Below, piece after piece: positions 34,164 to 36,148 of a stretch of DNA of 64,000 bases. The translations under genes were made by a program, and so were the position numbers. The notes under the pieces are model-generated. The model searched no databases, was not told where the DNA came from, and was given only the letters and a program-made list of their open reading frames with translations. The stretch comes from Candidatus Heimdallarchaeota archaeon (GTDB lineage: Archaea; Asgardarchaeota; Heimdallarchaeia; JABLTI01). Position 1 is the stretch's first letter, and every line of letters starts with the position of its first letter. The stretch is taken from positions 128,001-192,000 of the forward strand of contig JABCTZ010000046.1 of the NCBI GenBank assembly GCA_018238155.1, read 5' to 3'.

Positions 34164-34880
34164 ATGAAAGTATTCAAAAATGCTATAGAAAATTTTCTTT
34201 CGAAAGAAAAAATAGGTAGATGTGATTTCCACACACATTCTTTTTTCAGTGATGGTGTACTTCTTCCAATGGAGCTATTACGTCGAGCATTTATTTTTGG
34301 ACATGAAGCATATGCTATCACGGATCATGTAAGTGCATCAAATTTAGATATTATACCAAAATTAACCAAAGATTGTGAACTTGCAATAAAACATTGGGGA
34401 ATACTTGCATTACCTGGAGTGGAATTAACTCATGTCCCTGCAAATGCTATTGAAGAAGTGGCAGAACAAGCGAGAGAGATGGGTGCATTTGTAATCGTTG
34501 TTCATGGAGAAACAATCTCTGAACCAGTCGAACCAGGAACAAATTTGAATGCAGCAAAATTATCAAATGTTGATATTCTCGCCCATCCAGGATTACTCTC
34601 TAAAGAAGAAGCGAGACTATGTAAACAGAACAATGTCTTTGTTGAAATTACTACGAATCCTTCACACTCTATTACAAATGGACATATCGCAAAAGTAGGT
34701 CTAAAAGAGAAAGTAAGTTTCATCCAAAATACTGATACACACAAACCAACTAGCATGTTATCCTATTCTCAAGGAGAAGATGTACTTTTAGGAACAGGAT
34801 TTCATTCAGACATTGTTTCTAAGATACTACAAGATAATGTTCGATCTTTAATTACAAAAATAGAAGATAAAATGTTCTGA
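34164..34880 (+). CDS. PHP-domain phosphoesterase (archaeal histidinol-phosphatase-like family)
   Basis: DFHTHSFFSDG, ITDH, HGET, AHPG, NTDTH. Confidence 0.9.
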   Translation: MKVFKNAIENFLSKEKIGRCDFHTHSFFSDGVLLPMELLRRAFIFGHEAYAITDHVSASNLDIIPKLTKDCELAIKHWGILALPGVELTHVPANAIEEVAEQAREMGAFVIVVHGETISEPVEPGTNLNAAKLSNVDILAHPGLLSKEEARLCKQNNVFVEITTNPSHSITNGHIAKVGLKEKVSFIQNTDTHKPTSMLSYSQGEDVLLGTGFHSDIVSKILQDNVRSLITKIEDKMF

Positions 34881-34904
34881 AATTTGGAAGAGAAGAAGAA
34901 TTAG

Positions 34905-35188
34905 GGACGAGGAATTTAATCCCCGTCCGTTTAACGAGTGGGTGCCTTTGAAAAAAGTGTGACGAAGTTTTCCCCCCGCCTTGATATTATATTTCACTCG
35001 TTTCTTGGGAAACTCAAGATTTTTTTTATTGTGGAAGGGTTTTAAAGACATTCCTGCAAAAGGAATGTCCGCGTTTTTAAGATTCCCTTGTTTAATACCG
35101 AGGGATGAGGTATTTACAAGTATAACTATGTTGTGAATATTAAAAGGCGTTCTGGAAAATCGCACCCTACTATCTAGTAAAACCTTCC
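34905..35188 (+). ncRNA. Candidate structured non-coding RNA of unknown class
   Basis: Eight stems identifiable by eye, G-U pairs favouring the + strand, locally higher GC, no credible ORF. Details in findings. Confidence 0.55.
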
Positions 35189-35220
35189 GTATATTTATTA
35201 GCATTTGAAAAAAAATAGAT

Positions 35221-35258
35221 GAAAAGAAAGAGAGGTTGGATTTCTAGCTAGAAATCCA
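35221..35258 (-). terminator. Perfect 22-bp palindrome plus pyrimidine tract after 35267-36148
   Basis: TGGATTTCTAGCTAGAAATCCA (35237-35258), followed on the minus strand by ACCTCTCTTTCTTTTC. Confidence 0.55.
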
Positions 35259-35266
35259 TAAACTAT

Positions 35267-36148
35267 CTAATTTTGAGACGTTTTCTCAATTTGAGATGCT
35301 GTAGGATCTATCTCTTCTTTAGGTGACGTACCCAATAGAGTTAATTTCCAGAGCATTAATAGCAAACTAAACAGAATGAACCCACCAGCGAGAAGTGCCG
35401 AGAAAGTCCAAATATCGCCAGTTTTTTCGAAGAATGCTTTTTCAGTTACTTGTTTAATTAATGTACTCCATATTATTGGATAAATTACAAGTGGAAGTAT
35501 AAGTGAAACTATTGAAGCAGTAATCTTCGTCCTTTGTATGTATCTTAAAGCTAGATAATGTGCTCCAAGAAGGATTATAGCTGCTAAAATAAGGAAGAGT
35601 ATATTTACAGCAAAACTATTGAATGTTTCTGCACTACCATATTGAGGTAAATTGACAGGAGGAACCATTACATCATCAACTTCTATACCTGTTCCTGGTT
35701 TTAGATAAGTATGTCTATGTATGGGAATATCGTGAATTGCCGGATAGACTAGCAGATAGTTAACAATACCACTTACAACTGATACTGCACCAGCTGAACC
35801 CAACATTATTCCAAATCTTGCAAATGATTTCTTCTTTGGGTCTAGACCCATTGATGTACCAAAAATAACTTCAGCAATAAATATCAAAGTAATTTCGGTT
35901 GGTAATAAAAGAGCTATCATGGAAAACATCGCACCTATTCCAGGCTTAGTAGCATTTCCTAATGGTGGATCGATTACTTCATCAGCATTCGTATCAAGAT
36001 TGGCGTCTCCTTGTACATTGTTCAAGGTAGGTGAAATGAAATCAAGACCATTATTTGCTACAACATGAGAACATCCGACATTCCAAACAACTAAAAATGC
36101 TATTGCTACCACAAAAAAGATCGTTTTAGAGATTGTACTTTTTCGCAA
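35267..36148 (-). CDS. Hypothetical multi-pass membrane protein with a signal peptide
   Basis: N-terminal hydrophobic signal and about 5 TMs; no recognised motif. Confidence 0.7.
   Translation of the reverse strand: MRKSTISKTIFFVVAIAFLVVWNVGCSHVVANNGLDFISPTLNNVQGDANLDTNADEVIDPPLGNATKPGIGAMFSMIALLLPTEITLIFIAEVIFGTSMGLDPKKKSFARFGIMLGSAGAVSVVSGIVNYLLVYPAIHDIPIHRHTYLKPGTGIEVDDVMVPPVNLPQYGSAETFNSFAVNILFLILAAIILLGAHYLALRYIQRTKITASIVSLILPLVIYPIIWSTLIKQVTEKAFFEKTGDIWTFSALLAGGFILFSLLLMLWKLTLLGTSPKEEIDPTASQIEKTSQN

Follow-up and report, generated by a model that had tools for sequence, protein, structure and literature searches.

Among the archaea, the closest described systems are the intergenic, trans-acting small RNAs sRNA154 and sRNA41 of Methanosarcina mazei, which carry anti-RBS sequences (PMC5867862). 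A comparable design is found in the RsaE/RoxS small RNAs of Firmicutes, whose C-rich motifs pair with Shine-Dalgarno (SD) regions (PMC6158497). The locus described here lies in a 64,000-nt stretch of a Heimdallarchaeota genome (the window). We consider it reasonably probable that it constitutes a stand-alone gene for a small non-coding RNA of about 210-250 nt, located on the minus strand, controlled by a regulator and carrying the promoter and hairpins listed in Table 1. It represents an ordinary type of intergenic archaeal sRNA, and its role is most likely ordinary gene regulation. To our knowledge, little is known of the regulatory RNAs of Asgard archaea. Full-text literature searches returned no description of an Asgard RNA of this type, and among the regulatory RNAs described for Asgard archaea in the searched literature, there is none for which promoter, strand, structure and phylogenetic range have all been defined. 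New here are the RNA family as such, its confinement to one Heimdall family, and a promoter layout held in common with an ultra-conserved small regulator.

Like sRNA154 and sRNA41, the Heimdall RNA is intergenic and predicted to be independently transcribed, and it combines stem-loops with pyrimidine-rich sequence left exposed, with which it could cover ribosome-binding sites. As in these systems, a dedicated transcription factor probably sets its expression. In contrast to the Methanosarcina RNAs, to which it has no sequence or Rfam relationship, it is longer, contains a 22-nt invariant block and belongs to the Heimdall-group Asgard lineage. With RsaE/RoxS it shares several unpaired C-rich motifs, a G-poor composition, a terminal hairpin and a host that uses SD sequences. 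This likeness is by analogy only, as the bacterial family shows no homology to the Heimdall RNA and SD targeting by the latter is putative. The RsaE/RoxS family (RF01820) has no Rfam match in the window, and the C-rich-motif design alone is held in common.

The element occupies the region between two convergent genes (34881-35266), namely a PHP-domain gene and a membrane-protein gene. The gene order is constant across two genera and consists of an ABC ATPase, PHP, the element, the membrane protein and Nudix, with PHP lost or decayed in some genomes. The element adjoins the membrane-protein and Nudix genes in every lineage compared, and the same-strand order of nudix, membrane protein and RNA is common to both genera, which favours the minus strand for the RNA. 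Some lineages of the family are losing the PHP gene: neither L012/L060 nor the second genus has it, L056 carries it as three frame-shifted pieces, and the L011 copy is only 46% identical. Just past the membrane-protein gene, a perfect palindrome, GGATTTCTAGCTAGAAATCC (35236-35256), is followed by a T8 run (35208-35215, minus strand), and the two probably form the terminator of that gene. The same palindrome gave spurious short BLAST matches elsewhere. Since the T8 run and the palindrome separate the membrane-protein gene from the promoter of the RNA, the RNA is probably an independent transcript.

Table 1 Features of the small RNA locus and its surroundings in the window.
Feature	Position	Strand	Remarks
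PHP-domain gene	34164-34880	+	
Pyrimidine-/U-rich tail	34860-34904	-	Overlaps the last codons of the convergent PHP gene
Small RNA body (predicted)	34893-35116	-	Predicted start to just past H1; 3' end perhaps ~34860
H1, 3' terminal hairpin	34905-34928	-	Covarying
Invariant 22-nt block CAAAGGCACCCACUCGUUAAAC	34929-34950	-	Contains the P3 3' strand; U4-U6 run 5' of the block
P3 5' strand AACGAGUG	34995-35002	-	Pairs with 34933-34940
Hairpin and A8 run (T8 on plus)	35003-35027	-	Window clade; part of the variable middle
CCUUCC motif, start of open linker	35033-35038	-	+69 to +80 in 15/16 homologs
P2, 9-bp hairpin	35046-35070	-	Stem almost invariant, loop free
Pc, 5' hairpin, C-run/G-run stem	35084-35105	-	Pairing kept, sequences differ
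Predicted initiator TGTAAA	35113-35118	-	TGTATA in one clade
Putative spacer, TATA to start, 17 nt	35119-35135	-	Sequence unconserved, length constant
Putative BRE/TATA, (AGAA)CGCC and TTTTAATATT	35136-35149	-	Similar to tRNA-Gly promoters in this genome, CGAAAGGGTTTTAAAATA
Proximal box ATTTTCCAGAA	35150-35160	-	Near-invariant; 23 bp downstream of box 1, adjoins BRE
Distal element CGG-N4-TTTTACTAGA (box 1)	35173-35189	-	16/16 homologs, fixed spacing
293-aa membrane protein	35267-36148	-	Without Pfam match

The element is single-copy in its own genome and conserved within the family. Within the genus, BLAST recovered it from 9 of 10 genomes, and the remaining one is 64% complete. A covariance model recovered it from 10 of 11 genomes of the family, in both genera, and from none of 71 searched in six other families of the class. 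An exact 19-mer scan added metagenome and MAG contigs, and after removal of duplicates the set comprises 18 distinct homologs, namely the window and 17 further sequences from genomes and metagenome contigs. Many of these are close relatives, and homolog counts are therefore not independent. Three loci that matched the 19-mer only (L048, L054 and L057) were discarded as chance matches, of which about 2-3 are expected by a rough estimate; one is a bacterial terminator and one lies inside a 534-codon frame. The pattern of the P2 hairpin is present in 10 of 11 family genomes, and a scan of 389 other Asgard genomes gave only five matches, which were rejected as coding-like sequence carrying none of the other motifs. 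As far as searched, with a model and a pattern built from the sequences of one family, the RNA is restricted to a single family of Heimdall-group Asgard archaea. The label of one MAG, 'Candidatus Bathyarchaeia', is probably wrong: its 447-kb contig (L063, DATKZI010000014.1) carries the element with Heimdall-type neighbours, identical to L007/L058.

The element corresponds to no described RNA class that we compared. The earlier note had called the locus an unannotated non-coding RNA and could not fit it to RNase P or SRP RNA, and this holds. Rfam yields no match at gathering score in the whole window, and at E <= 10 only noise with bit scores far below the cut-off. The genuine archaeal RNase P RNA (RF00373; C24:104036-104373, 125.5 bits) and archaeal SRP RNA (RF01857; C41:47065-47371, 115.4 bits) genes sit elsewhere in the genome; the former model has no match in the window at gathering score or at E <= 10, and the latter has none in the window. 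Box C/D RNAs carry C (RUGAUGA) and D (CUGA) boxes that form a K-turn, and H/ACA RNAs have a pseudouridylation pocket and an ACA box 3' of the stem. No such conserved boxes were seen on either strand when the alignments were inspected by eye, and Rfam snoRNA models gave no match above noise in the window.

Aligned homologs consist of conserved blocks that alternate with variable, indel-bearing stretches. As MAFFT alignments put the 3' arms of H1 out of register, pairs in H1 and P2 were tallied by script from the hairpin ends. Across the 11 distinct sequences of H1, all 88 cells pair on the minus strand (82 Watson-Crick and 6 G.U), and the same 6 cells read A.C on the plus strand. Positions 1 and 7 of this hairpin run through the series G-C, G.U and A-U, while position 5 swaps G-C for A-U. 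P2, with 10 distinct sequences, pairs in 90/90 cells on the minus strand (85 Watson-Crick and 5 G.U), the same 5 again being A.C on the plus strand. Taken together, the two hairpins pair on the minus strand in 178/178 cells. Every one of the 11 non-Watson-Crick cells is G.U there and A.C on the opposite strand; they trace to roughly 8-9 independent changes, each favouring minus. It is on account of this asymmetry that the RNA is placed on the minus strand. For the same reason, the argument that the G-U pairs of this locus work only on the plus strand is reversed for H1 and P2. We infer the strand, as well as the ends and the promoter of the RNA, from sequence comparison.

The predicted RNA would comprise, in 5' to 3' order, Pc, P2, an open C-rich linker, P3 with the invariant block, H1 and a U-rich tail. 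Its body folds with an MFE of -59.4 kcal/mol (z -4.14) in the window and with a z of -4.71 in homolog L011, and the distance from the predicted start to H1 ranges from 182 to 243 nt in 16 homologs. The stem of Pc is formed by different sequences among lineages (CCCUA/UAGGG, CUCUA/UAGAG, CCCUU/AAGGG, CCCC/GGGG and UCCCU/AGGGA), including a double change from CCCUA/UAGGG to CUCUA/UAGAG. Downstream of P2, the linker starts with AUUUAAA..CCUUCCACA. It is C-rich, and G amounts to only 3-6% in 11 homologs; in the composition of the RNA, C exceeds G. The CCUUCC motif at its beginning, which reads CCCUCC in L007, is fully unpaired in the MFE fold of 13 homologs, and one to four further CCUCC or CCCUC motifs in the linker are likewise predicted to be unpaired.

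The middle of the RNA is variable. In the window clade it has been replaced by a private hairpin (35003-35019), which is seen in the window and, imperfectly, in L006 only, together with an A8 run and a G-rich loop. P3 is formed by an upstream strand that pairs with the invariant block in 10/15 lineages (RNAduplex z -2.9 to -6.1), in a sequence and register specific to each lineage; the window clade gives a weaker signal, and L010 and the second genus give none. Within P3, a small hairpin has the stem CACAA/UUGUG or UUGAG/CUCAA, depending on the clade, and its loop often contains CCUCC. The 22-nt block is 90-94% identical across the genus, compared to 55-83% for the flanking proteins, and its portion CCCACUCGU is also present in the second genus. 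At the 3' side, the RNA has a predicted defined end of the kind expected of a trans-encoded sRNA, consisting of the covarying H1 followed by the pyrimidine-/U-rich tail. The first run of four or more T lies within 51 nt of H1 in 16/18 homologs, and the tail is likely the termination zone.

The element is non-coding by the pattern of its variation: indels are not multiples of three, and the possible peptides, of 8-70 aa, are unconserved. Open frames of 118 aa on the minus strand (34848-35204) and of 51 aa on the plus strand (34981-35136), as well as small plus-strand frames that open at a GGAGG-ATG and small minus-strand frames that open at the AUG in P2, were rejected, as all are shifted by indels and their peptides are not conserved. 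The AUG in P2 reads the conserved CCUUCCACA in different frames among homologs, as judged by eye. As a whole, conservation, strand-specific covariation, a putative regulated promoter of its own and the lack of a conserved frame together point to a functional non-coding RNA.

Upstream of the predicted RNA, positions 35119-35190 read CGG-N4-TTTTACTAGA-N12-ATTTTCCAGAA-CGCC-TTTTAATATT-N17-TGTAAA on the minus strand, an arrangement best read as a promoter and not as RNA. The sequence of the presumed TATA box drifts among homologs yet remains A/T-rich (TTATAATC, TTTTAATAAT and TAATTAAAT), and the 17-nt stretch that follows keeps its length. The distance to TGTAAA, counted from the first base of the extracted element, measures 86 nt in 13 homologs, and two homologs have 85 nt; a reading of 101 nt for L009 arose as the script picked a second TGTAAA, located 15 nt downstream. 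A drifting A/T box with a constant-length spacer fits a TATA box and its TATA-to-start spacer, not an RNA helix. The TATA-to-start distance is usually about 22-24 nt in archaea, which puts the predicted transcription start at about 35115-35117 and box 1 at about -72 to -58. At the level of sequence, the locus thus has the promoter expected of a trans-encoded sRNA, with BRE/TATA, a fixed spacer and a start motif. A search by nhmmer for paralogs of this promoter in the same genome gave none that was significant.

Weak matches of the promoter model elsewhere disclosed a second promoter of this layout, located upstream of a gene for a 73-aa winged-helix protein (HTH_24, E 7e-9). In the window's own genome this gene lies at C41:27902-28120 (L084:203-421:+), and its homologs are L102-L114. 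The protein is 96-100% identical in 12/12 family genomes, compared to 55-83% for the proteins that neighbour the RNA locus. In its promoter, GCGGA is followed by one or two TTTACTAGA boxes with a 22-bp spacing, by AATTNNTCAGAG as the proximal box and by a TATA box of sequence TTTTATAT. The distal element, GCGGA-N-TTTACTAGA, is equivalent to box 1 of the RNA, and the position of the proximal box is taken by AATTNNTCAGAG or ATTTCTCAGAT. In the window's genome, the TATA box precedes the ATG of the regulator by 39 nt and a GGAG stands before the ATG. This layout is found in 10/10 family genomes whose upstream region was read, and in the second genus the promoters of the regulator and the RNA match box for box. 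Because the promoter layouts match, the RNA probably belongs to the regulon of the winged-helix protein, and the GCGGA and TTTACTAGA boxes in the regulator's own promoter suggest autoregulation.

The CGG-N4-7-TTTACTAGA pattern has four sites in the window's genome, where chance alone would give about two for the bare pattern. They are located upstream of the RNA, the winged-helix regulator, a type IV pilin-like gene (C41:62732, L086; Pilin_N 21.4 bits, below the cut-off) and a CheY-like receiver gene (C7:64903, L085; 71 bits). The pilin-like and receiver genes may be part of the same regulon; given the two chance sites expected, membership beyond the RNA and the regulator is tentative. Two loci in other genomes of the genus, L045 (G010:C14:183466-183637) and L046 (G003:C24:15187-15352), show the layout GCGGAT..TTTACTAGA..TATA. 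No substantial open reading frame follows either promoter (39-41 aa at most), and L045 has a hairpin with a U-run. These may represent further small RNA genes under the same control.

With regard to mechanism, transcription would start at about 35115-35117 from the BRE/TATA under two upstream TTTTACTAGA-like boxes, through which the 73-aa winged-helix regulator would control expression of the RNA. We tentatively postulate that the RNA then acts in trans on mRNAs, whose G-rich ribosome-binding regions would pair with the C-rich motifs of the RNA, with its invariant block or with the two together; this is a possible mode of action, and we hold it with some doubt. The host does use Shine-Dalgarno sites, as GGAG, GAGG and GGTG peak at -16 to -9. 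Pairing in trans with ribosome-binding regions is preferred on the strength of the G-poor body, the exposed C-rich motifs, the terminal hairpin and this SD-using host. The genome of the window contains no long complement of the 22-nt block. A candidate target (C21:99076-100101) with a single 11-nt match at its start codon was dropped, as the match is not kept in orthologs. In a crude genome-wide duplex scan, translation-initiation regions were not enriched over internal controls. Pairing of the RNA with the regulator's own ribosome-binding site, scored in seven pairs, was not significant, with z values from -2.7 to +1.5 and no common site.

A serious rival to this mechanism, although we consider it unlikely, is that the same minus-strand RNA serves as a protein-binding scaffold, a sponge or an RNP component, with the invariant block, the P2 stem and the U-run as protein contacts. 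A base-pairing seed does not usually require as much as a 22-nt invariant block and an invariant stem sequence, a hint of protein binding. The near-identity of the block across the genus, the fixed stem sequence of P2 next to its varying loop, and the conserved U4-U6 run just 5' of the block, a possible site for an Sm-like protein, are all in line with such a role, as is the lack of an mRNA target in the limited tests described above. Against it, no gene for a partner protein is linked to the locus, whose neighbours encode a membrane protein and a Nudix hydrolase, and the long G-poor, C-rich open linker is better suited to pairing. Pairing in trans remains the mode of action that we prefer.

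The earlier note had proposed a different molecule altogether, namely a plus-strand RNA of about 290 nt (34905-35188) with two domains joined by a pseudoknot, which might be a ribozyme, a riboswitch-like RNA or the remnant of an omegaRNA. This is very improbable, even though several observations favour it. All stems that it listed are present in the window, and on either strand the fold of the 306-nt stretch is more stable than those of dinucleotide shuffles, with a z of -3.83 on plus and -3.29 on minus. RNAalifold proposes plus-sense pairings between conserved blocks. Two wobble pairs of Pc (window clade and L014) work on plus only, and the variable middle has a lower MFE in the plus sense, as expected for any G/U-rich strand; we regard both as minor counter-evidence to the minus strand. 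A U6 run inside the minus-sense RNA of the window, directly 5' of the invariant block, also counts against that strand and could end some minus-strand transcripts early.

Comparison with the 17 further homologs divides the stems of that proposal. H1 (34905-09/34924-28) and Pc (35084-90/35099-105) covary, P2 (35047-55/35061-69) is kept, and P3 (34933-40/34995-35002) survives as complementarity to the invariant block. On the other hand, the domain-closing helix (35033-44/35178-88) and the stems 35070-80/35140-49 and 35111-19/35131-39 are not kept in relatives, and the stem 35003-19 is confined to the window clade. The pseudoknot likewise fails, as its GCACC (35162-66) is missing already in the nearest relative and its TTTTCC (34968-73) falls in a variable stretch. 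The long-range plus-sense helices of RNAalifold, UGCCUU/AAGGCG and GUGGG/CCCGC, lie in invariant columns and are broken without compensation in L010, L043, L047 and L052, and they were rejected. Furthermore, the A.C reading of the non-Watson-Crick cells in H1 and P2 stands against this strand. T runs of five or more, which act as archaeal termination signals (PMC8716108), break the plus-sense core in 10/18 homologs (a T8 in the window) and the minus-sense core in 4/16. On minus, the T runs come after H1; on plus, no T run lies within about 45-100 nt past the proposed 3' end. The plus strand, the 290-nt extent and the two-domain architecture are thus not supported, and about 70 nt of the supposed second domain are better explained as the promoter of the minus-strand RNA.

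The functional classes suggested for the plus-strand molecule fare no better. An omegaRNA lies at the end of an insertion sequence or beside tnpB or iscB, and as a rule occurs in several copies, at sites that differ from genome to genome. The element is single-copy, has fixed synteny and no TnpB, and no transposase gene lies beside it, which leaves a remnant of an IS200/IS605 omegaRNA unsupported. A riboswitch or cis-regulatory leader, in turn, is located in the 5' UTR of the regulated gene on the same strand. Since no gene follows the element on either strand, the RNA is not a leader of this type.

That the locus is a cis-antisense RNA or a bidirectional terminator for the convergent PHP and membrane-protein genes, with the RNA mattering only through its overlap with the PHP 3' end, is hardly credible. 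H1 does lie 25 nt past the PHP stop codon, and the minus-strand tail reaches the last PHP codons; however, the RNA is kept where PHP is absent (L012/L060 and the second genus) or broken or diverged (L011/L056), and a terminator would need neither a 22-nt invariant block nor a regulated promoter of its own. Equally slight are the chances that the locus holds no functional RNA and only DNA-level signals, such as protein-binding palindromes and promoter or operator sites: although 35119-35190 is best read as a DNA signal, a consistent G.U and never A.C asymmetry in two helices is unexpected for DNA palindromes, and the minus strand has no gene downstream of the promoter.

For the stand-alone, regulator-controlled small RNA gene that we favour, a wider reading can be envisaged, in which the RNA and the 73-aa winged-helix protein form a conserved circuit of one Heimdall family. 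The regulator would drive itself, the RNA and a few other genes via TTTTACTAGA boxes, and the RNA would relay the signal post-transcriptionally through its block or its C-rich motifs. In its entirety this is speculative and rather improbable; if true, it would count among the earliest transcription factor-sRNA circuits to be defined in those archaea that stand closest to eukaryotes.

The locus also carries a warning on method, as stems drawn from a single sequence pointed to the wrong strand and to a pseudoknot unsupported by comparison. Because the RNA is lineage-restricted, it changes no general picture by itself. It offers a clean and testable case, with a single-copy RNA gene, covarying hairpins and an operator layout held in common with an ultra-conserved regulator. 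If confirmed, it would provide an entry point to circuits of transcription factors and sRNAs in Heimdall archaea and add a family of the Rfam type.
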